From: a virus
Taxonomy: Duplodnaviria; Heunggongvirae; Uroviricota; Caudoviricetes
IMG/VR virus record: IMGVR_UViG_2713896737_000030
Reading direction: 5' to 3' (one strand)
DNA: 9,825 bases
The first letter of the stretch is position 1; each line of letters begins with the position of its first letter. The notes below the pieces were generated by a model. The model ran no database searches. It worked only from the letters and a program-made list of their open reading frames with translations, and was not told where the DNA came from. Made by a program: the position numbers and the translations under genes. Below, in pieces: positions 1 through 9,825 of this stretch.

Positions 1-1230
1 ATGAGCAGAGCACTTAACAAACTGAGCGATACACAGCTGAGGAAAATCAACGGCACACCCGCCCAAAAAACAGCCTTTCTTAATGACGGTGGAAACCTGA
101 GCGTCAGGCATTCAACCAGTGGCCTTTTAACCTGGTATTTCACTTACAGGGCCGGAACGGGAAGGGGGGCACCACCGGAACGCATTAAGCTGGGAAATTA
201 TCCTGATCTGAGCCTGAAATCAGCCAGGGAAAAAGCCGCCCAGTGTCGCGCATGGCTGGCAGAGGGGAAAAATCCACGTCATGAGCTTAATTACACCGTA
301 CAGGAAGCGTTAAAGCCGGTAACGGTTGGCGATGCGCTCACCTACTGGCTTGAGTCGTACGCAAAGGAAAACCGCGTGGATTATGCCGCCCTGAAAAAGC
401 GCCTTAATAATCACGTAATACAGCACATTGGTGCTATGCCGCTGGATAAATGCGAGCTACGGCACTGGCTGGCCTGTTTTGACCAGGTGGCAAAGCGAAC
501 GCCTGTTACTGCCGGATTCTTGCTACAGACGTGCAAACAGGCGCTTAAGTTCTGCCGGAGGCGGCGCTATGCAATCAGCAACGTTCTTGATGATATGAGT
601 GTGGCGGACGTTGGGAAAAAACCGGATATAAGCGAGCGTGTCTTAAGCACCAAAGAACTGGGCGAATTATTGCAGGCACTGGACAAAAAAATATTCTCCC
701 CCTACTACATCGCGTTAATCCGCCTCCTGATTGTGTTCGGATGCCGGACGGTAGAACTGAGGTTATCGGAGATCAGCGAGTGGGATTTTACCGAAATGCT
801 CTGGACCGTTCCGAAGGAGCACAGCAAAACGAAGGTAGCCATATTCCGGCCTATACCGGAAGCAATACTGCCGTTCATCACGCAGCTGGTGGAGCAGAAC
901 AGGCACACGGGCTTATTGCTGGGGGAAGTGAAACAGGAGGCCAGCGTATCGCAGTATGGAAGATTAGCGCACAGGAGGCTTAATCACCCTCACTGGTCAC
1001 TGCATGACATCCGGCGCACCTTTACAACCATGCTGAACGATTTAGGCGTTGATCCGCATGTCGTGGAGCAGCTTACAGGCCACCAGATGCCAGGAATGCA
1101 GCGAGTTTATAATCATTCCCGTTATCTGGATGCGAAACGCAATGCGCTGGATATGTGGACGGAGCGGTTAGGGATACTGGCGGGAACACATGAAAACGTA
1201 ACCACGCTACCAGTAGCCAGAAGAAAATAA
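1..1230 (+). CDS. int: Tyrosine recombinase / integrase, P4-like family (409 aa)
   Basis: Full-length ORF beginning at base 1. N-terminal arm-binding-like region (LSDTQLRKI...FLNDGGNLSVRHSTSGLLTWYFTYR) and C-terminal catalytic region with HDIRRTFTT...GHQ...YNHSRY, consistent with the R-H-R-Y tyrosine recombinase signature. No tRNA or att site is visible in the window, so the integration site must lie outside it. Confidence 0.9.
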   Translation: MSRALNKLSDTQLRKINGTPAQKTAFLNDGGNLSVRHSTSGLLTWYFTYRAGTGRGAPPERIKLGNYPDLSLKSAREKAAQCRAWLAEGKNPRHELNYTVQEALKPVTVGDALTYWLESYAKENRVDYAALKKRLNNHVIQHIGAMPLDKCELRHWLACFDQVAKRTPVTAGFLLQTCKQALKFCRRRRYAISNVLDDMSVADVGKKPDISERVLSTKELGELLQALDKKIFSPYYIALIRLLIVFGCRTVELRLSEISEWDFTEMLWTVPKEHSKTKVAIFRPIPEAILPFITQLVEQNRHTGLLLGEVKQEASVSQYGRLAHRRLNHPHWSLHDIRRTFTTMLNDLGVDPHVVEQLTGHQMPGMQRVYNHSRYLDAKRNALDMWTERLGILAGTHENVTTLPVARRK

Positions 1231-1247
1231 TTTTTTTCGTGTTTTTT

Positions 1248-1263
1248 CAGTATGCGCATACTG
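1248..1263. promoter_or_regulatory. 16-bp perfect palindrome CAGTATGCGCATACTG immediately after the int stop, preceded by T-runs
   Basis: Read directly from sequence; self-complementary. Not a canonical terminator on either strand (no U-tract following the hairpin in the transcribed sense). Possible protein-binding site. Confidence 0.35.
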
Positions 1264-1285
1264 GATATGCGAACAGATACAACGT

Positions 1286-1325
1286 GCAACAATGAGCAAC
1301 AATGTGGAACAACTACGAACAAGAG
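1286..1325 (+). repeat. Four tandem ~10-bp units (GCAACAATGA / GCAACAATGT / GGAACAACTA / CGAACAAGAG) in the int-alpA intergenic region
   Basis: Direct reading: GCAACAATG occurs at 1286-1294 and 1296-1304, followed by two degenerate units. The 10-bp period (one helical turn) suggests phased protein-binding sites. Confidence 0.5.
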
Positions 1326-1594
1326 GCGAAAAAGCGTACGGATTTATAAGTAGCTGATTTTTAATGTGTTACTGGTTTTTTATACACTAGCGAATCACTC
1401 TTTAAAGAGCGAGAAAAAAGGCATGGAACAATATTTTATGCCTTTGTATTAACATGAATTTAAAAGATTTTATTCTTACTTTTTCATTTTCTGTAAATCA
1501 TACATCCTCAGTATTTGCCATTCATCACTCTAGCGGGAACAATACGACACAATAAGACACCTGATGACTCTTTAAGAAACGAAAGGGGGCAATA

Positions 1595-1783
1595 GTGTTA
1601 AGCACTGATCGGTTTATACGTGAAAAAGAATGCGAAAAACTAACCGGCCTTAGCCGTACGTGTCGCTACCGCCTGGAAAAGGCCGGACAATTCCCATCAC
1701 GTCGTAAACTTGGCGGTCGTTCCGTTGGCTGGTCTTTATCCGAGGTTCTGGCCTGGAAGGATAGCTGCAAGGCAGTTCATTAA
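1595..1783 (+). CDS. alpA: AlpA-family phage transcriptional regulator (small HTH, excisionase-like), GTG start
   Basis: 62-aa ORF with an SD-like AGGGGG 6 nt upstream of GTG at 1595. Protein (FIREKECEKLTGLSRTCRYRLEKAGQFPSRRKLGGRSVGWSLSEVLAWK) matches the AlpA/Xis-like pattern. Lies directly downstream of int in the same orientation, as in Gram-negative PICIs and CP4-57-like islands. Confidence 0.85.
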   Translation: MLSTDRFIREKECEKLTGLSRTCRYRLEKAGQFPSRRKLGGRSVGWSLSEVLAWKDSCKAVH

Positions 1784-1929
1784 TCACGCTGGCGGCACAC
1801 AGCCGCCACACATCAATCATCTGAACACAGAGCTATAACCATGAAGATTGAATATACGCCAGAACGTGGGCGGGGATTCGTTCGCCCTGGTGAGACTGGA
1901 AAACCACAAAATTGGGGTTTTTCAGGCAT

Positions 1930-1958
1930 AAAAAAAGCGGCCCCGAAATGGAGCCGCC
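1930..1958 (-). terminator. Putative rho-independent terminator for the minus-strand two-gene module
   Basis: On the minus strand: 5-bp GC stem (GCGGC / GCCGC, + coordinates 1937-1941 / 1953-1957), 11-nt loop, then a 7-T tract (complement of the A-run at 1930-1936). About 95 nt downstream of the minus-strand ORF stop at 2053. Confidence 0.55.
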
Positions 1959-2052
1959 TTTCTGAACAGATAACCCGCTGCGCCTTATGTGTATATGATC
2001 CCAAACATAAGCACGGGGATGATAGCCGCTATCAGGCTGGTGGGCAATGCTA

Positions 2053-2226
2053 TCAGTCTGGTTCAGTTCGTTGCCATACCTGCAATGGGCGCGTTTCCCT
2101 GTACTCTTTAAGGAATTGCTCAAGGGCAAAAGCACATGGCGCGAATCTTTCTGATTCATGCTCTATCTTTCTGCGCCGTCTTTTCCGTGCCGGTGATAAT
2201 GTTTTGGTCAATTCTTTATCGGTCAT
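2053..2226 (-). CDS. Hypothetical small basic protein (57 aa from the second ATG; 62 aa if the ATG at 2241 is used)
   Basis: ORF-track entry 2053..2241 (-). The second ATG (2226) has an AGGA-type SD about 7 nt upstream, whereas the first ATG is preceded by a 7-bp hairpin (2248-2254 / 2268-2274). Contains a KRRRRK basic stretch. Rare codons (AGA, AGG, ATA) are consistent with horizontally acquired DNA. Function unknown. Confidence 0.4.
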   Translation of the reverse strand: MTDKELTKTLSPARKRRRRKIEHESERFAPCAFALEQFLKEYRETRPLQVWQRTEPD

Positions 2227-2283
2227 TGTGTTGTCCTGCATAGCAATGCGCCGTAATACCTCACACCACGGCGCTGATAGTTT

Positions 2284-2457
2284 TTATCCTTTGGGTTCTA
2301 TGCCGCGTTGCTGTAATTCTTTGCGGAGAACGCGTTTAATCCAAGTGGCTAAAGATGTGTCGCCATCGGCCTTAGCAGCTTCTTCTAGCTGCGCTCTGAA
2401 GTCTTCCGGTAATCGCATTTGGTATGGAGGCGAACGTTTTTCTAATGGTGTTGACAT
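2284..2457 (-). CDS. Arc/MetJ-type ribbon-helix-helix DNA-binding protein (57 aa); not in the ORF track because it is under 60 aa
   Basis: Manual translation of the minus strand gives MSTPLEKRSPPYQMRLPEDFRAQLEEAAKADGDTSLATWIKRVLRKELQQRGIEPKG. This has the RHH pattern (beta strand YQMRLPEDF, helix, G-x-S/T-L turn, second helix) comparable to P22 Arc and Mnt. SD-like AAGGG lies 8 nt upstream of the ATG. Confidence 0.65.
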   Translation of the reverse strand: MSTPLEKRSPPYQMRLPEDFRAQLEEAAKADGDTSLATWIKRVLRKELQQRGIEPKG

Positions 2458-2499
2458 GGTAATTACCCTTTATTGCTATACCTACATGGTAATTACCAT
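2451..2499. promoter_or_regulatory. Operator/promoter region: two copies of ACATGGTAATTACC (2454-2467, 2484-2497) spaced 30 bp, each containing the palindrome GGTAATTACC; TTGACA -35 hexamer at 2451-2456 and TGcTATACC extended -10-like at 2474-2482
   Basis: Read directly. The second copy is a perfect 14-bp palindrome, ATGGTAATTACCAT (2486-2499). The first copy overlaps the RHH start codon and SD region. Both flank a plausible + strand sigma70 promoter that faces the downstream + strand operon. Confidence 0.5.
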
Positions 2500-2587
2500 T
2501 GTACTTGCCATTACACAAAAATCAACGCCCCGCAGTGCTGGGAACACATACGGGGCGTCTAACCAACAACGTAAACTAGGAGCCGTT

Positions 2588-2785
2588 ATGGTTGCCGTAA
2601 ATCATATACCACACCTTGTACACACACAAACGGCCTTTGTGTGGCGTTTTCTGGCACTGAGTGCCGGAGAATCTCAAATCATCCACGTAACCGCCTGGAC
2701 GGAACGCGAAGCGCGTAACCGTTGCCCGTCCGGTTGTGTTGCTGTATTTGCCGCCCGTATTCGTCAGGAGGTGCGCCATGATTAA
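2588..2785 (+). CDS. Hypothetical small protein (65 aa)
   Basis: The 3' part of the long 1841..2785 ORF. ATG at 2588 has a good SD (AGGAG, 5 nt spacing). Stop overlaps the next start (ATGATTAA), suggesting translational coupling. Function unknown; small proteins at this position in such islands are often annotated Icd-like or Ash-like, but I cannot confirm that from sequence. Confidence 0.55.
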   Translation: MVAVNHIPHLVHTQTAFVWRFLALSAGESQIIHVTAWTEREARNRCPSGCVAVFAARIRQEVRHD

Positions 2786-2990
2786 TCTGTCACTTACTGA
2801 CCTTAACCGCATTCAGTTTCGTGAGAAATTCACAGGGCAGCTACTGGTCAATGTGGATAAAGGTCGCGTGGTGTGTAATTACCACTTACCAGATGAAGCA
2901 ATTGTCGCCACAAGGGAATCATTACAGGAAATCACAAAACGTGCCGGAATGATTAACACGAATATTCAGGGGATGCTTTATGCACAATAA
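2778..2990 (+). CDS. Hypothetical small protein (70 aa)
   Basis: ATG at 2778 preceded by AGGAGG (7 nt spacing). Overlaps the upstream and downstream genes in an operon-like arrangement. Confidence 0.55.
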   Translation: MINLSLTDLNRIQFREKFTGQLLVNVDKGRVVCNYHLPDEAIVATRESLQEITKRAGMINTNIQGMLYAQ

Positions 2991-3444
2991 AACCACACCG
3001 GACGCAGCCGCCGAAGCCATCAAAACGCTGATGCACGCGCTGATTGATATTTCTGTTATCGCGGACAGGGCACATAAGCACGCCACCAGCGAAACAGAAT
3101 ATGCCGGTGCTTTCGTTCCTCACTCACTGGCTGTCATGCAATTTAGTGCTGATACGGCGCTGAATGAGGCCAAAGCTATCCTGATTGCTGATTGTGAAAA
3201 TGGGGGGGTTATGCGTGATGATCGTTTTAATTCCCTGAAACAGGAATTTTCCGGCGTTCCTGATGATGCGGCTGATGCGCTTTCGTCAATGCCAGAACTT
3301 ATTAGAGCGGCTTTTTTCTTACTTTCCACGAGAGAATATAAATCAACGGGGCTTGATGTACTGAATATCGCCGCCGATTATGCGGAATATGTGGCAGAGG
3401 CGCGTTATAGAAGAAAATTTCCTGAGGATGTAAGCCATGCGTGA
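2980..3444 (+). CDS. Hypothetical protein (154 aa)
   Basis: ORF with an AGGGGA SD-like sequence. Overlaps the next gene start by 8 nt (ATG at 3437, TGA at 3442-3444). No recognisable motif. Confidence 0.7.
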   Translation: MHNKTTPDAAAEAIKTLMHALIDISVIADRAHKHATSETEYAGAFVPHSLAVMQFSADTALNEAKAILIADCENGGVMRDDRFNSLKQEFSGVPDDAADALSSMPELIRAAFFLLSTREYKSTGLDVLNIAADYAEYVAEARYRRKFPEDVSHA

Positions 3445-3670
3445 TATTTACCACCAAACAATAGACCGCGCATTTCTTGCACTTTCTCACAGTGAAAACA
3501 TGATGGAAATATTGCGCATATGGCTTGAAACACTTGGCGACAATGAACGCGACAAACAAAAATCAAGAATTGCCACGGCATTAATAACGCTTCTTGAGCC
3601 TGTAATAATGGAACTGCAAGAAATAGATCTATTGCACGACAGATATAAAGAACAGCACACCGGAGAATAA
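3437..3670 (+). CDS. Hypothetical protein (77 aa)
   Basis: Start overlaps the previous stop (translational coupling). No recognisable motif. Confidence 0.65.
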   Translation: MRDIYHQTIDRAFLALSHSENMMEILRIWLETLGDNERDKQKSRIATALITLLEPVIMELQEIDLLHDRYKEQHTGE

Positions 3671-3675
3671 AAATA

Positions 3676-3975
3676 ATGAAACTTAAATATTCTGGCTTAA
3701 CTGCCAGTGGCAACACTCACCCTAAATTTACGCGCGGTGATATTTACCGCGACCAGTACGGCGGCACGGTAATGATTAAGGGCGTGGAAGAACGGCGCGT
3801 AACCTACCGCCGTGAAGGTTACGAATATGATTGCGTGATGCCTGTTTATCAGTTCCGGCGTGATTTTTCTCTGGTACAGACCGCGCCGCATAACGTGCCC
3901 ACCAGCAACGCCAGGGCACGGGCAAACATCCAGAAGCTGAAAACCATGGTTAACGGATTCAGGGGCAAGAAATGA
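3676..3975 (+). CDS. Hypothetical protein (99 aa)
   Basis: GGAGAA SD upstream. Stop overlaps the ATG of the replication gene (ATGA at 3972-3975). Confidence 0.65.
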   Translation: MKLKYSGLTASGNTHPKFTRGDIYRDQYGGTVMIKGVEERRVTYRREGYEYDCVMPVYQFRRDFSLVQTAPHNVPTSNARARANIQKLKTMVNGFRGKK

Positions 3976-5372
3976 AAAGCGCACCGAACTTAAAAAAACA
4001 GCCTTACGACAAGATGACCGAAGTCATTATTTTTGCGGGTAGTGATGCCTGGGCACATGCGAAACAGTGGCAGGAACAGGACGGGCGACTGGCTGGCGAT
4101 AATGTGCCTCCCGTTGTGCTGGCTGATGATCAACTGGATGAACTGGCAGAACTGAGAATCATCGACGAGGGGCGCTATTGTGTCCGGCTGTACAAGGCAG
4201 GCCACATCAGGCCATCAAATATTAATGCCATTGCGCACAAGCTGGCGGCGGCGGGTGTAACTGATGCGAATTATTACCCCGAAGGGATGCACAGCCATAT
4301 GCGGGAGAACTGGCGCGAATACCTGGAACGGGTGCGCGGGAAAGAGCCGGCGGAAGAAAAAAACCACCAGCGAAAAACCACGCTACCGATGAGCGTTGGA
4401 TCTACCGGATACGACACGCAACTGGATTACGTGGTTAAGGGGATTATTCCGGCGGTATCGCTATGCAGCATATACGGGGCTAGCGGGTCCTATAAATCAT
4501 TCCTTGCCGGATCGTGGGCGTGCCATGTTGCCACTGGTCGCCAGTGGGGAGGCCGCAGGGTTGCACATGGTGCGGTTCTCTATGTGGTTGGTGAAGGCGG
4601 TATAGGTGTTCCGCGTCGTGTAAAAGCCTGGGAGGTTGTGCACGATGAGCAGGTGAAAAATCTGTATCTGGTAAACCGCCCCATCTTTCCGGCTGCCCCG
4701 CTTGATGTTGATGAAATGGTTATCGCTGCCCGTCAGGTGGAGCGGGAAACGGGTAAACCTGTACGCATGATTATTCTGGATACGCTGGCGCGTTGCTTTG
4801 GTGGGAATGATGAAAATGATTCCCGTGATATGGGGGCGTTTATCCGTGGTTGTGACGAACTGAAACGACGCACAGGGGCCACGGTGCTGGTGGTTCACCA
4901 TTCCGGCAAGGATGAGACGAAAGGCGCGCGCGGTTCCAGTGCATTTCGTGCTTCGCTGGATGCTGAATACCGGATACGCAGGGAGGACGCAGGAAGCGAA
5001 GCGCTGGTTATCTCATGCACCAAAATGAAGGACGCGGAGGAACTCAAAGAAGCCGCATATGACTTACGCGTGGTGGAGCTTTTTACCGACGCTGACGGTG
5101 AATTAATCACGTCGCTGGTGGTGGTGGATGATCCGCGCCCTCCTGTTGAACTGGAGCGCATCGAGGAGGCAGGGAACAAGACGGAAAACCATACCGCGCT
5201 ATGGGGGTGCATCCGTTCACGCACACAGAACGGCGACAAGTGCACGATCCCGCTGTTACGTGATGACATGAAAAAGCTGGGGTATGAAATGAAAAACTTC
5301 CGGCGCTGGCTGTACAAGCTGGAAAAAGATGGGGTTATTCGTATCGATGGGGATGATGTAGCGCCGCTATAA
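3972..5372 (+). CDS. Replication initiator ATPase/helicase, RepA-like RecA-fold (AAA_25-type) domain with N-terminal extension (466 aa); PICI pri/rep-like
   Basis: Walker A-like GASGSYKS, Walker B-like RMIILD, and downstream VVHHSGKD...RGSSA motifs typical of RepA/DnaB-like RecA-fold ATPases. Positioned after alpA and followed by an iteron array. Confidence 0.85.
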   Translation: MKSAPNLKKQPYDKMTEVIIFAGSDAWAHAKQWQEQDGRLAGDNVPPVVLADDQLDELAELRIIDEGRYCVRLYKAGHIRPSNINAIAHKLAAAGVTDANYYPEGMHSHMRENWREYLERVRGKEPAEEKNHQRKTTLPMSVGSTGYDTQLDYVVKGIIPAVSLCSIYGASGSYKSFLAGSWACHVATGRQWGGRRVAHGAVLYVVGEGGIGVPRRVKAWEVVHDEQVKNLYLVNRPIFPAAPLDVDEMVIAARQVERETGKPVRMIILDTLARCFGGNDENDSRDMGAFIRGCDELKRRTGATVLVVHHSGKDETKGARGSSAFRASLDAEYRIRREDAGSEALVISCTKMKDAEELKEAAYDLRVVELFTDADGELITSLVVVDDPRPPVELERIEEAGNKTENHTALWGCIRSRTQNGDKCTIPLLRDDMKKLGYEMKNFRRWLYKLEKDGVIRIDGDDVAPL

Positions 5373-5563
5373 AAGTGAGGAGCAAAAGCGAGGGGGATAG
5401 AAAGAGGGCCAAAATTAGCCCGCTCTCCCTCACTTTTCGACCTGTATACATCCTCAAAAGTGAGGGGTAAAAAAATACTTATGAAACACACACATAGAAA
5501 AACCGAAAATCCCAACTGCGACGAAGTGAGACGCTTGAAAAAGTGAGGCGAAAAAGTGAGAGG
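5372..5563. repeat. Iteron array (candidate replication origin): at least 6 copies of AAGTGAG, consensus (A)AAAGTGAGG, including one inverted copy
   Basis: Direct copies at 5373-5379, 5457-5463, 5524-5530, 5541-5547 and 5554-5560; inverted copy at 5428-5437 (CCTCACTTTT). Degenerate copies at 5385-5396 and 5401-5410. Lies immediately downstream of the rep gene. Confidence 0.65.
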
Positions 5564-5572
5564 TTGCGAGAA

Positions 5573-5824
5573 ATGACCCAAAAACGCAGAGACAGAACAG
5601 AGCCAAAATATAAAGCGTTAGACATGACTGAGCACACCTTAAAGGTGGCAATCAGAACGATAGACCGCCACACGCGGGAAGGATACGCGAAGGAACATCC
5701 CGACCTGATAAGCGCATTCATGACCACGGCGGCGGCAAACTTTGCCACGCTGACAGAACGGGAGATTGCCGAAGCGGAACAGGTAACAACCATCAACGTT
5801 AAAACCGGAGAGGTGGAATTATGA
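5573..5824 (+). CDS. Hypothetical protein (83 aa; start uncertain, alternatives at 5543 and 5620)
   Basis: ORF-track 5543..5824, but the 5543 start would lie inside the iterons. ATG at 5573 has a GAGAGG SD-like sequence upstream. Stop overlaps the ssb start (ATGA at 5821-5824). Confidence 0.5.
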   Translation: MTQKRRDRTEPKYKALDMTEHTLKVAIRTIDRHTREGYAKEHPDLISAFMTTAAANFATLTEREIAEAEQVTTINVKTGEVEL

Positions 5825-6231
5825 CGGCACAGATAGCCGCTTACGGGCGGCTGGTGGACGACCCGCAGGTAAAACAGACCAGCAAGGGCACACCGATGAC
5901 GCTGGCGCGTATGGCGGTATCTTTGCCATGCAGCCAGGCACAGGACGGACAGGCGACGTTATGGTTATCGGTCATCGCATTTGGCAAACAGGCCGGCTTC
6001 CTGGCTAAACATCAAAAAGGCGATGTTGCCAGCGTATCCGGCACGATGCAGGTAAGCCAGTGGACCGGACAGAACGGAGAAACGCGGCAGGGCTGGCAGG
6101 TTATCGCAGACAGCGTAATCAGTGCCCGCGCGGCACGTCCAGGCGGGAACAGACGCAAAACCACAGGCACACAGGGTAATCAGCCACCAGCGGGAGGCGA
6201 TGACCCTTACGGTGATGATATTTCGTTCTGA
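5821..6231 (+). CDS. ssb: Single-stranded DNA-binding protein (SSB-like OB-fold) with Gly/Gln-rich linker and acidic C-terminal tail (DDPYGDDISF)
   Basis: N-terminal region resembles E. coli SSB (RLVDDPQVK...; WLSVIAFGKQAGFLAKHQKGDVASVSGTMQVSQWTGQNGETR compared with [40 protein letters not shown]). C-terminus resembles the SSB DDDIPF tail. Confidence 0.75.
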   Translation: MTAQIAAYGRLVDDPQVKQTSKGTPMTLARMAVSLPCSQAQDGQATLWLSVIAFGKQAGFLAKHQKGDVASVSGTMQVSQWTGQNGETRQGWQVIADSVISARAARPGGNRRKTTGTQGNQPPAGGDDPYGDDISF

Positions 6232-6241
6232 GGGGGTGACG

Positions 6242-6514
6242 ATGGTACATGACCGCATAGCGGAGGAACTGGAGGCGAAAGGCTTTTACCGGAGGGCGGC
6301 GGCGCGATGGGGTGAAGTCATGCAGCTGGTGGAGACAGACAAGGAACGGCATCACATCACGATGCGACGGCTGGAATGTTCAAGGAAGGCACAGAGGGCA
6401 CCGGAGCCGCCGGATAATTTCGGAGACCTGAAAAAGGCAGTCGATCGCACTTATGCCGAAATGGGTATAGATGGTGCTGGTGATGAAATATGGCGCAATT
6501 ACCAGGACAGCTAA
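6242..6514 (+). CDS. PerC-family transcriptional regulator-like protein (90 aa)
   Basis: Start ATG 6242 with a GAGGGGG SD. N-terminus MVHDRIAEELEAKGFYRRAAARW matches the PerC/Pch signature (AExLExxGxWRRAAxRW). The longer track ORF from 6122 overlaps ssb and is rejected. Confidence 0.7.
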   Translation: MVHDRIAEELEAKGFYRRAAARWGEVMQLVETDKERHHITMRRLECSRKAQRAPEPPDNFGDLKKAVDRTYAEMGIDGAGDEIWRNYQDS

Positions 6515-6520
6515 TCAAAC

Positions 6521-6544
6521 AGCCGGAGAAATCCGGCTTTTTTT
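6521..6544 (+). terminator. Rho-independent terminator (copy 1 of a repeated hairpin)
   Basis: AGCCGGA-GAAA-TCCGGCT stem-loop (7-bp stem, GAAA tetraloop) followed by 7 Ts, directly after the PerC-like stop. Confidence 0.8.
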
Positions 6545-6640
6545 GCACCAGTTGAAACGGTATGGCGCATTACCGGGTTTTCGTCACGGTCAGGCATAGT
6601 TACTATCTGAAACAAACAGACACAACAGAGGAAAAAAACA

Positions 6641-6865
6641 ATGCCGATGAAATTTGATGAGATATTAAAACAGCGTGATAAATACCATGCTGACAACATG
6701 GAGACGATGAGCATCAATGATTACCGCGCATTCCTGGAGACGGGCGCACTGATTGAAAAGGATCAGCATGGTTTTGTGAGATGTGCTCTATCCGGTGAAA
6801 TGCTGGCGGTAAATCCTGAACAGATAGATGCATTGATAGAATTTCTGAAAGAGATCAGAGACTGA
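6641..6865 (+). CDS. Hypothetical small protein (74 aa), a stand-alone gene bounded by terminators
   Basis: AGAGGA SD 8 nt upstream of the ATG. Flanked by terminators at 6521-6544 and 6885-6907. Confidence 0.6.
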   Translation: MPMKFDEILKQRDKYHADNMETMSINDYRAFLETGALIEKDQHGFVRCALSGEMLAVNPEQIDALIEFLKEIRD

Positions 6866-6884
6866 GCCAGCACACAGCACACAT

Positions 6885-6907
6885 AGCCGGAGCAATCCGG
6901 CTTTTTT
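6885..6907 (+). terminator. Rho-independent terminator (copy 2 of the repeated hairpin)
   Basis: GCCGGA-GCAA-TCCGGC followed by 6 Ts. Confidence 0.75.
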
Positions 6908-6913
6908 GCGCCC

Positions 6914-6955
6914 AAAAAAAGCCCGATAAGGTCAGAGGGTTCTTATCGGGCTTTT
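6914..6955. terminator. Bidirectional terminator-like hairpin (10-bp stem GCCCGATAAG / CTTATCGGGC, A7 upstream, T4 downstream)
   Basis: Perfect 10-bp inverted repeat at 6921-6930 / 6942-6951 with an 11-nt loop. The A-run at 6914-6920 gives a 7-U tract when read on the minus strand. Confidence 0.6.
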
Positions 6956-7032
6956 GCATATGAGGTTTTTGGATGCACTGGCGTTCGTGATCGGGATAAT
7001 CATTTCATAATTTGCAACATAACTCAATATCA

Positions 7033-7062
7033 TTGCATAAAATGCAATTCTGATTATAATCA
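7033..7062 (+). promoter_or_regulatory. Candidate promoter for the head-gene operon: consensus TATAAT at 7055-7060 inside the 12-bp palindrome TGATTATAATCA (7051-7062); upstream inverted repeat TTGCA-N5-TGCAA (7033-7047)
   Basis: Read directly. AT-rich region between the bidirectional terminator and the first gene of the capsid operon. Which -35 hexamer is used is unclear. Confidence 0.35.
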
Positions 7063-7116
7063 GGACTGGATAAACATCCAGTTATGATTTTTTTAGTCGA
7101 AGAGGAATTTCTTACT

Positions 7117-7323
7117 ATGGCTGAAGAGAAAAAAAGCGGTGTTTCGGTGTACATAAGCCCCGAAATCGTGGAGGTGCTCAAGCAGCGCCACAAAAAAAAC
7201 TATGAAGCTGGCGTTGCGGCTGGACTGGATCCGCTGATGACGCCGGAGCCGTCGATAGGTTCACTTGTACGCTCTTATTTACTTGCGGCGCTTGGGATGC
7301 ATAAAAATTATGGGGGTGAATAA
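7117..7323 (+). CDS. Hypothetical small protein (68 aa; alternative start 7084), translationally coupled to the capsid gene
   Basis: AGAGGA about 10 nt upstream of ATG 7117. Stop TAA overlaps the capsid gene ATG (TAATG at 7321-7325). Confidence 0.5.
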   Translation: MAEEKKSGVSVYISPEIVEVLKQRHKKNYEAGVAAGLDPLMTPEPSIGSLVRSYLLAALGMHKNYGGE

Positions 7324-8378
7324 TGGCAGGCAAAGCAACGGCACTTAACACTAACCAGCTTTTCATGTACCTGAATCGCGGGGATATTGCGGATTTTAAA
7401 TTCAGCCCTCTGTTTACCACGCTGTTTTTCCCGAACGTGGCGACATTCAGCACGCAAAACATCATGCTGGATACCCTGGACATTGAAGAAGTCACCATGT
7501 CGGCGTTTTGTTCGCCTATGGTGGGTAGCCAGGTTCAGCGCGATAAAGGGTACGAAACCAGCACAATCAAACCTGGCTACATGAAGCCAAAGCACGAAAT
7601 CGATCCAACGAAAACCATCATGCGCATGGCTGGAGAAGATCCGGCACAGCTTAACGACCCTACCTATCGCCGTATGCGCCTGATTACTGGCAACATGCGC
7701 CGCCAGATAAACGCCATTAAGGCACGCGTGGAATGGCTGGCGGTGAATGCGGTAACGACCGGAAAAAACATCATTGAGGGCGAAGGCATAGAACGCTATG
7801 AAATCGACTGGAAAATACCGGAAAACTGCATCATAGAGCAGGCCAAGGGTAAAAAATGGTCCGAGCAGGATAAAGACATGCACGACCCAATCTATGACAT
7901 CGAGCTTTATGCTGATCAGGCTGGTTGCCCCGCAAACGTCATGATTATGGGCGCTGAGGTATGGCGCACATTACGCAGCTTTAAAAAATTCCGTGAGCTG
8001 TACGATCTTTCCCGTGGTTCAGAATCCGCCGCCGAACTGGCCTGTAAAAACCTGGGCGAAGTGGTGAGCTTTAAAGGCTATCTTGGTGATCTGGCCCTTA
8101 TCGTCTATTCCGGCAAATACACTGACAGCGATGGTACCGAAAAATATTTCCTTGAGCCTGATTTGCTGGTCCTAGGTAACACCAACAATAAAGGGCTGGT
8201 GGCCTATGGTGCGATAATGGATCAGGAAGCGGTAAGAACGGGCGCAACACAAAACATGTTTTACCCGAAAAACTGGATTGAGGACGGCGATCCGGCGATT
8301 GAGTACGTGCAGACACACAGTGCACCGCAGCCGGTACCGGCAGATATTCGCAAATTTGTTACCGTCAAAATTGGTTAA
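7323..8378 (+). CDS. Major capsid protein, phage lambda gpE-like family (351 aa)
   Basis: Several conserved blocks match lambda gpE as recalled: FKFSPLFTTLFF vs FKFDPLFLRLFF; PGYMKPKHEIDP vs PGYVKPKHEVNP; DPTYRRMRLI vs DPAYRRRRII; YPKNWIEDGDPAIEYVQTHSAP vs YPKNWVTTGDPAREFTMIQSAP. Length is similar (351 vs 341 aa). Strong SD (GGGGGTG). Confidence 0.85.
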   Translation: MAGKATALNTNQLFMYLNRGDIADFKFSPLFTTLFFPNVATFSTQNIMLDTLDIEEVTMSAFCSPMVGSQVQRDKGYETSTIKPGYMKPKHEIDPTKTIMRMAGEDPAQLNDPTYRRMRLITGNMRRQINAIKARVEWLAVNAVTTGKNIIEGEGIERYEIDWKIPENCIIEQAKGKKWSEQDKDMHDPIYDIELYADQAGCPANVMIMGAEVWRTLRSFKKFRELYDLSRGSESAAELACKNLGEVVSFKGYLGDLALIVYSGKYTDSDGTEKYFLEPDLLVLGNTNNKGLVAYGAIMDQEAVRTGATQNMFYPKNWIEDGDPAIEYVQTHSAPQPVPADIRKFVTVKIG

Positions 8379-8390
8379 CGGGGGGATTCT

Positions 8391-8726
8391 ATGGACACTC
8401 CATACATTGAGTTATTTGCAGGCAGTCAGCAGGTATCCACGACGTTGGTACATTTTGCCGCTGATGCTGGCGTTATTCAGGAATTTACCCCGCTGATGCT
8501 GGCAGACAATGGCGAGTTTAAGCCGTGGGATGGTCAGGAATCTGGCAAGGCTGTTTATCTGACCTCGTACCCTGTGGACACGTCAAAGCAGAAATCAGCA
8601 CAGTGTTACAAGACGGGGATATTCAATATTGCCGCCGTTAACTGGCCTGAGAGCGTCGACACCGATGCGAAAAAATGCGCCGCCTTTGCGGGTTCCGGCG
8701 TATCCGTTCAGCCGCTGGCCCGATAA
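8391..8726 (+). CDS. Head decoration protein, phage lambda gpD-like (111 aa)
   Basis: TPLMLADNGEFKPWDG vs lambda D TPLMLDTSSRKLVAWDG; CYKTGIFNIAAVNWPESVDTDAKKCAAFAGSGVSVQ vs [36 protein letters not shown]. Length 111 vs 110 aa. Confidence 0.8.
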   Translation: MDTPYIELFAGSQQVSTTLVHFAADAGVIQEFTPLMLADNGEFKPWDGQESGKAVYLTSYPVDTSKQKSAQCYKTGIFNIAAVNWPESVDTDAKKCAAFAGSGVSVQPLAR

Positions 8727-8738
8727 GCAGGGGGAACG

Positions 8739-9152
8739 ATGGCAACGAATGAAAGCATCATGACGCTACCGCTGGCGAGTAAATTTAAAGTCGAAGCGCG
8801 GGCAATGGCTGACAGAGGTTTATCAACCTATGAGGCCGTATATCAACTAAACAAACTGGAAGAGCAGGACAAGCCGTGCGCTGATGCGATTATGGCGCTT
8901 CATGAGCATAAAGACTATCAGCCGCTGTTGCGTGCAATGGCAAACGTGCCTTGTATCGATGTTGGTACGGCTAAAAGCATCCTTAGCATGACCATAGAGC
9001 AGGAACGTCCGAAGGTTGCGCCGGAACTTACCGCAGCCTTTGAAAACTTTATGGACATGCACAGCCCGCAAGCCGTATCAGCTGGCATGGCATACGATGG
9101 CAGAAACCAGGGCGATGACGGCGACATCGATCGCATACTGAAAACCATCTGA
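8739..9152 (+). CDS. Hypothetical protein (137 aa) between the decoration gene and the cos site
   Basis: ORF with a CAGGGGGA SD and a terminator just downstream. No recognisable motif; its position suggests a head or packaging accessory role. Confidence 0.7.
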   Translation: MATNESIMTLPLASKFKVEARAMADRGLSTYEAVYQLNKLEEQDKPCADAIMALHEHKDYQPLLRAMANVPCIDVGTAKSILSMTIEQERPKVAPELTAAFENFMDMHSPQAVSAGMAYDGRNQGDDGDIDRILKTI

Positions 9153-9157
9153 GACAA

Positions 9158-9180
9158 GGCCGGAGAAATCCGGCTTTTTT
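9158..9180 (+). terminator. Rho-independent terminator (copy 3 of the repeated hairpin)
   Basis: GCCGGA-GAAA-TCCGGC followed by 6 Ts, 6 nt after the stop of the 137-aa gene. Confidence 0.75.
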
Positions 9181-9204
9181 ACGGGTCCTTCCTGGAATTA
9201 TGGC

Positions 9205-9245
9205 CCGTTACGGGGCGGCGACCTCGCGGATTTTCGCTATTTATG
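9205..9245. other. Lambda-type cos site: the 12-nt sequence at 9213-9224 (GGGCGGCGACCT) matches the lambda cohesive end (cosN), with lambda-like flanks
   Basis: Window sequence GTTACGGGGCGGCGACCTCGCGGATTTTCGCTATTTATGAGCCTTTTCAGG compared with the lambda left end as recalled, GGGCGGCGACCTCGCGGGTTTTCGCTATTTATGAAAATTTTCCGG. The match is near-identical through CGCTATTTATGA and diverges thereafter, where lambda cosB lies. Sits about 135 bp upstream of a Nu1-like gene, as in lambda. Confidence 0.75.
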
Positions 9246-9318
9246 AGCCTTTTCAGGGTGGTGGTGGTGGTTTTGTTGTTTGATCTATCTTTATGAATGA
9301 AAAGGGAAAGATGCAAGC

Positions 9319-9356
9319 AATACACCAACCTGAAGCAGTAATTAAGTTGGTGTATT
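9319..9356. promoter_or_regulatory. 11-bp perfect inverted repeat AATACACCAAC / GTTGGTGTATT with a 16-nt loop, abutting the terS-like start codon
   Basis: Read directly (9319-9329 and 9346-9356). Candidate protein-binding site in the cosB-equivalent region, or an mRNA structure affecting translation initiation. Confidence 0.4.
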
Positions 9357-9357
9357 A

Positions 9358-9702
9358 ATGAAATCTCATCTGATGAACAAAAAAAACATGGCGAAAAGCT
9401 GCCGTGTAAGTGCGACAGCGTTCGACAAGTGGGGAGTAACTCCCGTTGAGCGTAAAGGCCGTGAGGCGTTTTATGATGTTGCCAGCGTGATAGAAAATAG
9501 GGTTAACAATGCAATTAGCCAGCTTATAAACGACAAAGGCGAGATTGACGATGATGAACTTTTACGAGTCAGGATCAGATTACTGACAGCACAGGCAGAG
9601 GCGCAGGAACTTAAAAACGATCGCGGTGACGTGATTGATACTGAGTTTTGCCTGTACGCGCTTTCAAAGCTGGCGAGTCAGATTTCATCAATCATGGACT
9701 GA
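9358..9702 (+). CDS. Terminase small subunit, lambda Nu1-like (PICI Rpp-like); 114 aa, apparently truncated at the 3' end by an IS insertion
   Basis: LTAQAEAQELKNDRGDVIDTEFCLYALSKLASQISSIMD matches lambda Nu1 [42 protein letters not shown]. N-terminal region resembles the Nu1 winged-HTH region. Nu1 is 181 aa; here the reading frame ends with a TGA that is the first three bases of the IS (9700-9702). The exact start is uncertain (ATGs at 9358, 9373, 9388; none has a good SD). Confidence 0.75.
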   Translation: MKSHLMNKKNMAKSCRVSATAFDKWGVTPVERKGREAFYDVASVIENRVNNAISQLINDKGEIDDDELLRVRIRLLTAQAEAQELKNDRGDVIDTEFCLYALSKLASQISSIMD

Positions 9703-9825
9703 ACCGCCCCGGAAATCCTGGAGACTAAACTCCCTGAGAAAGAGGTAAACAGGATGACTAAAAATACTCGTTTTTCCCCCGAAGTCCGTCAGCGGGCGAT
9801 TCGTATGGTTCTGGAAAGTCAGGAT
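9700..9825 (+). mobile_element. IS3-family insertion sequence (IS629/IS1203-like left end), partial; continues beyond the window
   Basis: Left terminus TGAACCGCCCCGGAAATCCTGGAGACTAAACTCCCTGAGAAAGAGGTAAACAGG followed by the OrfA start. The terminal sequence and OrfA N-terminus match IS3-group elements as recalled. Confidence 0.75.
9754..9825 (+). CDS. IS3-family transposase OrfA (HTH subunit), N-terminal 24 codons; partial, runs off the window
   Basis: MTKNTRFSPEVRQRAIRMVLESQD matches the conserved N-terminus of IS629-like OrfA (MTKNTRFSPEVRQRAVRMVLESQ...). SD GAGAAAGAGG upstream. Confidence 0.8.
   Translation, partial: MTKNTRFSPEVRQRAIRMVLESQD

Follow-up and report, generated by a model that had tools for sequence, protein, structure and literature searches.

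The window considered here is a stretch of 9,825 nucleotides of viral DNA, and it closes on an open reading frame that resembles the small terminase subunit of lambda, Nu1, but stops after 114 codons. The question that this locus raises is whether the frame represents a complete member of the Nu1 family or the remnant of a longer gene, and what the answer means for the element that carries it. A preliminary description held that a Nu1-like small terminase gene had here been interrupted by an IS3-family element, and this is borne out both by an intact allele in E. coli 08-3914 and by a match to IS1203. We consider it very probable that a recent IS1203/IS629 insertion into terS of an EcCICFT073-like cos-PICI has led to the loss of self-directed packaging, and that the event reflects sporadic satellite decay rather than adaptation.

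The host island

Gram-negative PICIs of the EcCICFT073-like kind are recognized by an integrase gene, alpA, a replication module, a capsid-like gene and cos/terS, with one direction of transcription and a dedicated att site, as well as by the absence of tail and lysis genes and a length of about 10-15 kb (PMC6092414; SatelliteFinder preprint). On the basis of Pfam annotation, site and gene order, the island in the window belongs to this group. Upstream of the cos region it harbors the following features:

1-1230, plus strand: integrase (tyrosine recombinase) at the left end of the PICI, with Pfam domains Arm-DNA-bind_3 and Phage_integrase; roxA-proximal, as in 08-3914 and CFT073
1595-1783, plus strand: AlpA-type regulator (Pfam Phage_AlpA, E = 5.4e-17)
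3972-5372, plus strand: replication protein of the RepA/AAA_25 helicase type (Pfam AAA_25, E = 2.4e-43; relatives are named 'helicase RepA family protein')
5821-6231, plus strand: single-strand DNA-binding protein (Pfam SSB)
7323-8378, plus strand: homologue of the lambda gpE-like major capsid protein (Pfam Phage_cap_E, E = 5.5e-50)
8391-8726, plus strand: homologue of the lambda gpD-like head decoration protein (Pfam HDPD, E = 5.1e-18)
8739-9152, plus strand: conserved island protein of 137 aa (PHROG 1999, unknown function, E = 1.7e-68)

The overall gene order of the island is int, alpA, the RepA-type helicase gene, ssb, perC, the gpE-like and gpD-like genes, the 137-aa ORF and terS. The 137-aa protein has no Pfam or PDB match; a weaker relationship (E = 4.7e-9) links it to PHROG 53, 'head maturation protease', in the C-terminal part of that family. 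In lambda, this region encodes the Nu3 scaffold. Judged from its sequence, the 137-aa ORF may specify a scaffold-like protein that accompanies the capsid and decoration homologues of the island.

Positions 1-9699 of the window are 99.9% identical to an island found beside phoQ, at the roxA/phoQ site, in many O157:H7 genomes. Just one SNP and one 10-bp indel separate the window from the 08-3914 island across 9.7 kb, and the insertion in terS is therefore taken to be recent. The indel is found at 1285, near a 314-aa ORF (1841-2785) that overlaps a region of 08-3914 annotated by PGAP as an incomplete 'host cell division inhibitor Icd-like' pseudogene. PICIs that carry terS reach up to 6 copies per genome among 765 complete genomes.

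The small terminase gene and its break point

The last gene of the island is present in the window only in part:

9358-9699, plus strand: 5' fragment of terS, codons 1-114 of 178, covering the predicted DNA-binding N-terminus and the first half of the conserved central region

Together with its stop codon the 114-codon frame occupies 9358-9702. In 08-3914 the intact gene, annotated as 'terminase small subunit', encodes 178 aa, and the window is 100% identical to it until base 9699. With the junction marked by a slash, the intact allele reads ...ATCATGGAC/AGCCTCCCG, and in another extract across the same point ...ATCATGGAC/AGCCTCCCGCTT, whereas the window reads ...ATCATGGAC/TGAACCGCCCC. Since the two share no base past 9699, the boundary of the IS at 9700 is unambiguous. 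The insertion point thus falls after nucleotide 342 of terS, between codons 114 and 115, with the IS in the orientation of the gene. Reading of the sequence and of its frames places the TGA that ends the truncated frame at 9700-9702, where it is formed by the first three bases of the IS. The earlier proposal that these bases open the left end of the IS and supply the stop therefore holds, and the boundary is exactly at 9700 in comparisons with the intact allele and with a complete IS alike.

When 9160-9825 was compared by megablast with 5,426 complete E. coli genomes, hundreds of matches were obtained, all of which cover only 9160-9699 (query positions 1-540). The exact junction is absent from these genomes as well as from species-representative genomes and the JGI metagenome and IMG/VR collections, and the far-side (right) junction of the element was likewise not found in the same collections, even with a gapped pattern for that junction. 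A collection of 15 billion proteins, queried with three alternative starts, does not contain the exact 114-aa product.

The identity of the gene is clear from several comparisons. The 114-aa fragment scores 41.8 bits against Pfam Phage_Nu1 (PF07471), over profile positions 35-130 of 164 and against a curated cut-off of 30 bits; the intact allele reaches 74.8 bits. The fragment also matches PHROG 57, 'terminase small subunit', with E = 1.2e-29, and the intact island TerS aligns end to end with lambda Nu1 in BLASTP at 36% identity (E = 2e-31). As regards a putative N-terminal winged-helix DNA-binding domain, this alignment begins at Nu1 residue 3, but residues 1-37 have a pLDDT below 50 in the AlphaFold model, and in a phmmer search of the PDB TerS did not match the Nu1 DNA-binding domain. 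The preliminary description placed the end of the frame at about residue 114 of the 181 in Nu1, which is off by about 16: D114 aligns with Nu1 D130 (SSIMD/SLPLT in the island, ASILD/GLPLS in lambda), because the island protein is shorter in mid-sequence.

The 64 residues lost from the 178-aa product correspond to about residues 131-181 of lambda Nu1, so that the earlier statement that the C-terminal, large-terminase-interacting part is missing stands. In lambda the C-terminal portion of TerS binds TerL (PMC9611059), and PMC6739421 cites residues 100-181 as the TerL-binding part. As this region is absent from the ORF in the window, what the window holds is a gene fragment and not a complete member of the Nu1 family. 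Among 17 aligned full-length homologues, drawn from Escherichia, Enterobacter and Citrobacter and 56-98% identical, residues I112, M113, D114, P117 and L118 do not vary, which means that the IS cuts through IMD/SLPL, the motif of the protein that is conserved best. The AlphaFold model of the intact protein has a mean pLDDT of 57.6, which is too low for a fold search, and it was used cautiously for secondary structure only. In this low-confidence model a predicted helix spanning residues 95-121 includes residue 114, and two further helices downstream would be lost.

No full-length homologue was found that naturally ends at this position. Full-length relatives in a protein search of a 5.8-billion-cluster set are 168-186 aa long and all pass through IMD/SLPL, and at least 80% of terS is kept in one piece in 757 of the 765 complete genomes that have the gene. 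Disrupted alleles are rare and of several kinds: insertion of an IS (at five different sites), frameshifts and one deletion. Database entries that are short and stop at ...SSIMD or close to it proved to be partial genes at contig ends (L008, L010-L013) or, in one case, a deletion variant (L009), and codon 114 was accordingly rejected as a natural end of the protein. Nor is codon 114 supported as a hotspot, since in finished genomes the gene is hit at other points.

Some further observations concern these short entries and the allele itself. Several of the draft contigs (L008, L010-L013) stop 1-5 nt past the junction base of the window. The deletion variant (L009, Logan ERR5386305) has an internal deletion of about 1.1 kb relative to intact islands such as L014. 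It belongs to a different PICI, at the cspD/clpS site, and the left endpoint of its deletion (10346-10349) coincides with the window's IS-junction base, after ...ATCATGGAC, in a place where the IS is absent. This coincidence could reflect chance, assembly-graph forks between PICI copies, or an IS-excision scar with an adjacent deletion. The terS allele common to the window and 08-3914 is itself rare, being two codons shorter than usual (178 vs 180 aa; ...KN--DRGD vs ...KNERDRGD, at 9617 in the window), and only one complete genome has a match to it of at least 99% identity.

The insertion sequence

The remainder of the window belongs to the element:

9700-9825, plus strand: left end of an IS3-family IS of the IS1203/IS629 type, with the left inverted repeat at about 9700-9724 and the start of orfA at 9754; 100% identical over 126 nt to L005 1601-2910

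From 9700 the sequence reads TGAACCGCCCCGGAAATCCTGGAGA..., and the frame that opens at 9754 (MTKNTRFSPEVRQRAIRMVLESQD) runs past the end of the window, so that the first 24 codons of orfA (9754-9825) lie inside it. The 126 nt are a 100% match to elements carrying the PGAP name 'IS3-like element IS1203 family', and IS1203 is an isoform of IS629 (PMC3271280). The complete reference copy (L005 1601-2910) is annotated as IS1203, is 1,310 bp long and splits espY2, with a 3-bp target duplication, AAG. Its terminal inverted repeats are TGAACCGCCCCGG(3 nt)TCCTGGAGA, with the two ends agreeing at 13 of 13 and then 9 of 9 positions. The end seen in the window, which is the left one, conforms to the 5'-TG...CA-3' terminal inverted repeats of the IS1203/IS629 type within the IS3 family. 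Copies that are identical across the shared 126 nt carry an annotated programmed frameshift, more than 1,300 records hold copies of the IS at 99% identity or above, and the same termini recur in strain C325, whose IS629-type variant is 96% identical.

The finding of an in-frame TGA at the junction is unremarkable, because the IS begins with TGA in both orientations and one reading frame in three is consequently stopped at once. For IS629 no target consensus or sequence-specific target is known, and its duplications are of 3-4 bp (PMC3271280). The event in the window resembles the IS629/IS1203 disruptions described for STEC/O157:H7 (PMC3271280) in the 1,310-bp element with TGAACCGCCCCGG termini, in the preference for prophage-like DNA (about 62% of the O157:H7 IS629 copies reside in prophages or prophage-like elements), in the truncated pseudogene that results and, as seen in sister events, in the 3-4 bp duplications. 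It differs in that its site is not among the 47 catalogued in four reference O157:H7 genomes, and its flanks are absent from the site table of that study. The published 'IS.27 in SpLE 2' of EDL933 was considered as the same site and rejected, since it is found at 2.8 Mb with other flanks.

Sister insertions in the same gene

Searches of finished genomes with chimeric queries revealed four other, independent insertions of IS629/IS1203 in terS, at different sites and in both orientations:

F765: after terS nucleotide 124, same orientation, duplication GTTG; simple insertion
UTME-3: after terS nucleotide 324, inverted, duplication GCG; the product, of 108 aa, also stops on the TGA of the IS
C325: after terS nucleotide 449, same orientation, no duplication; about 970 bp deleted beside the IS
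DEC4E: after terS nucleotide 460, inverted, duplication ACA; simple insertion

As these sites differ, there is no sequence-specific hotspot in the gene. The preliminary description had suggested that the flanks of the window's element be joined in silico, and the same operation was run on the sister insertions. Removal of the IS and one copy of the duplication brings back a 180-aa ORF in F765, UTME-3 and DEC4E, that is, in three of the four, and in these same three strains PGAP marks equivalent terS fragments beside IS1203. In C325 (L002 3648-4957) the IS629-type copy, 96% identical to the IS of the window, is followed directly by sequence from close to the right end of the island, and the missing stretch takes with it cos2 and a 93-aa ORF.

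The cos region and the cassette between the cos sites

The DNA that separates the 137-aa ORF from terS includes two further features:

9182-9257, plus strand: cos1, a cosQ/cosN region conserved with lambda, with cosN (GGGCGGCGACCT) at 9213-9224; left arm of a 76-nt inverted repeat
9258-9357, plus strand: island-specific cosB-like region, dissimilar to lambda cosB, with a (GGT)n run at about 9257-9271 and an 11-bp inverted repeat

The right arm of the 76-nt repeat, cos2, lies beyond the window and is seen in the intact relatives, where terS is placed between two inverted copies of cosQ/cosN that are 76 nt long and 91% complementary (L001 3023-3098 and 3882-3957). The alignment with lambda, over 9186-9245, takes in cosQ, cosN and the next 22 nt or so, after which the likeness ends, and the cosB region of the island therefore differs from that of lambda. 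A divergent cosB is a published property of E. coli cos-PICIs (PMC6739421). The island gene and lambda gpNu1 are thus alike in their full-length homology and in their position just 3' of a lambda-like cosQ/cosN. However, the island cosB region is unlike that of lambda, terL does not follow the island gene, and the copy in the window has no equivalent of Nu1 residues from about 131 to 181.

An 11-bp perfect inverted repeat, AATACACCAAC...GTTGGTGTATT (9319-9329 and 9346-9356), finishes 1 nt before the ATG of terS, and this repeat and the (GGT)n run are candidate TerS-binding or translational control elements. Between the end of the 137-aa ORF and cos, close to both, a GC-rich hairpin, GCCGGA-GAAA-TCCGGC, is followed by six T (9159-9180) and looks, from its sequence, like an intrinsic terminator. 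A consensus promoter and terminator scan of 9050-9825 returned nothing and did not flag this hairpin. Were the terminator to work, terS would require its own promoter or read-through.

EcCICFT073 is the prototype of the Gram-negative cos-PICIs (PMC6092414, PMC6739421) and occupies the same roxA/phoQ site. It shares with the island the integrase, alpA and replication genes, ssb, perC, the capsid and decoration genes, the 137-aa ORF, cos1, a cassette, an inverted cos2 and the 93-aa ORF, with the flanks of the cassette 90-96% identical between the two. Two cos sites have been published for it (PMC6092414), and in CFT073 (L017) cosN is found at 15559 (plus strand) and 16298 (minus strand). The difference resides in the cassette itself, which encodes RppA (144 aa) in EcCICFT073 and a Nu1-type TerS (178-180 aa) in the island lineage, where the IS has, moreover, disrupted the copy in the window. 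Homology between the two islands ends and restarts exactly at the cos arms, between which are found terS with its cosB in the one and rppA with its cosB in the other. Given these breaks, the packaging-specificity module looks like a swappable cassette that is bounded by the inverted cos repeats.

Consequences of the insertion and alternative explanations

The scheme that we favor starts with the recent transposition of a 1,310-bp IS of the IS1203/IS629 type into terS of an island at roxA/phoQ of a STEC/O157-related E. coli. The TGA borne by the IS ends the terS frame, and the product loses its last 64 residues, the conserved C-terminal third. By extension from lambda Nu1 and the satellite-TerS paradigm, the truncated TerS would be unable to bring helper TerL to the island's own cos, so that the island would lose self-directed packaging and be poorly mobile or immobile. 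The decay of the satellite would in this way be a sporadic event, due to an IS that is highly active in the lineage. Loss of TerL recruitment, and with it of self-directed packaging, is by this analogy the most likely consequence. As outlined in PMC6092414, TerS supplied by a SaPI pairs with helper TerL and steers packaging toward satellite DNA. The satellite-encoded TerS of the island, whose role is presumed, would follow the same concept, although the SaPI protein serves phages of the pac/headful type and lies outside the Nu1 family. It is from SaPI TerS and lambda Nu1 together that we infer a role for terS in the transfer of E. coli PICIs of this type. The TerS-encoding E. coli PICIs that have been assayed transferred poorly even when intact (PMC6092414), and a second terS-carrying PICI in the same genome could complement the defect in trans.

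A variant of this explanation with a larger loss is that the insertion was accompanied by an adjacent deletion or an IS-mediated rearrangement, which would leave the 3' part of terS (195 nt), cos2 and the 93-aa ORF absent or distant. C325 provides an example of such an outcome, only 21 of the 47 catalogued O157:H7 IS629 copies keep matching target duplications (PMC3271280), and both excision of IS629 and IS-adjacent deletions are documented (PMC9943667). Set against this, three of the four sister insertions are simple: their 3-4 bp duplications are intact, and the two halves of the gene are both there. We give the larger loss a modest chance. The three simple events to one deletion, taken together with the 21 intact duplications among 47, make a simple insertion probable at the locus of the window. 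For a simple insertion the predicted target duplication is GAC, and the right end of the element is predicted to read ...CCCGGGGCGGTTCA/GAC AGCCTCCCGCTTACT... about 1,184 bp past the end of the window. During assembly, unique DNA could also have been wrongly joined to a multicopy IS to produce a junction of this kind; IS copies are a classic source of such errors, and the junction occurs in no other genome of the collections searched. However, the join falls to the base on the genuine end of the IS, which is expected of real transposition and not of a collapse or chimera, and equivalent events are found in the same gene in four finished genomes, which makes an artefact scarcely credible.

Another alternative is that the fragment has a function of its own. 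RppA of EcCICFT073, a protein of 144 aa with a TerS-like wHTH domain, heterodimerizes with helper TerS (residues 1-98 suffice), sequesters it and blocks phage packaging (PMC6739421). TerS(1-114) would retain the predicted DNA-binding N-terminus along with some of the self-association region but lack the TerL-binding tail, and as a functional, Rpp-like dominant interferer it would occupy the island cosB or form mixed oligomers with helper TerS and poison helper packaging. The insertion leaves the start codon, the DNA upstream of it and codons 1-114 as they were, rppA fills the slot between the cos sites at the same site in the sister island and offers a conceptual precedent, and a truncation of comparable length (108 aa) occurs in UTME-3. 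Yet there is no sign of selection: the exact product is missing from the 15 billion proteins searched. Disrupted alleles are few and diverse. The break also cuts an invariant motif within a predicted helix, which would favor an unstable product, and Rpp additionally promotes packaging of the PICI by way of helper TerS, which a simple truncation is not expected to do. Finally, RppA has no detectable similarity to the TerS of the island: RppA of CFT073 (L017 15660-16091) gave no BLASTP alignment with TerS and an hhalign probability of 0.1%, and a comparison of TerS with PDB chains gave no match to RppC. Both TerS and the neighboring 137-aa ORF were rejected as Rpp homologues by BLASTP, hhalign and PDB search. 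On this balance a functional interferer is very unlikely, and a packaging-defective island is the more likely outcome. It is decidedly improbable that the IS has turned a satellite TerS into an Rpp-like protein that is still made and that hinders helper packaging by mixed oligomerization or cos occupation; if this were true, it would mean that evolution can pass in a single step from a 'TerS-type' to an 'interference-type' PICI cassette.

The insertion is an ordinary, recent knockout of a gene by a common IS in a known type of satellite, and not a new mechanism. Beyond annotation it has little importance: this copy of the island is probably unable to direct its own packaging, which bears on predictions of PICI mobility in the strain. 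It adds one more polymorphic IS629/IS1203 site, possibly useful for strain typing. The cassette, with terS and rppA as alternatives between inverted cos repeats, is biologically the more interesting observation, and it largely restates published PICI biology. Demonstrating the activity of this IS, the five independent insertions in terS show how it erodes satellites in STEC genomes.
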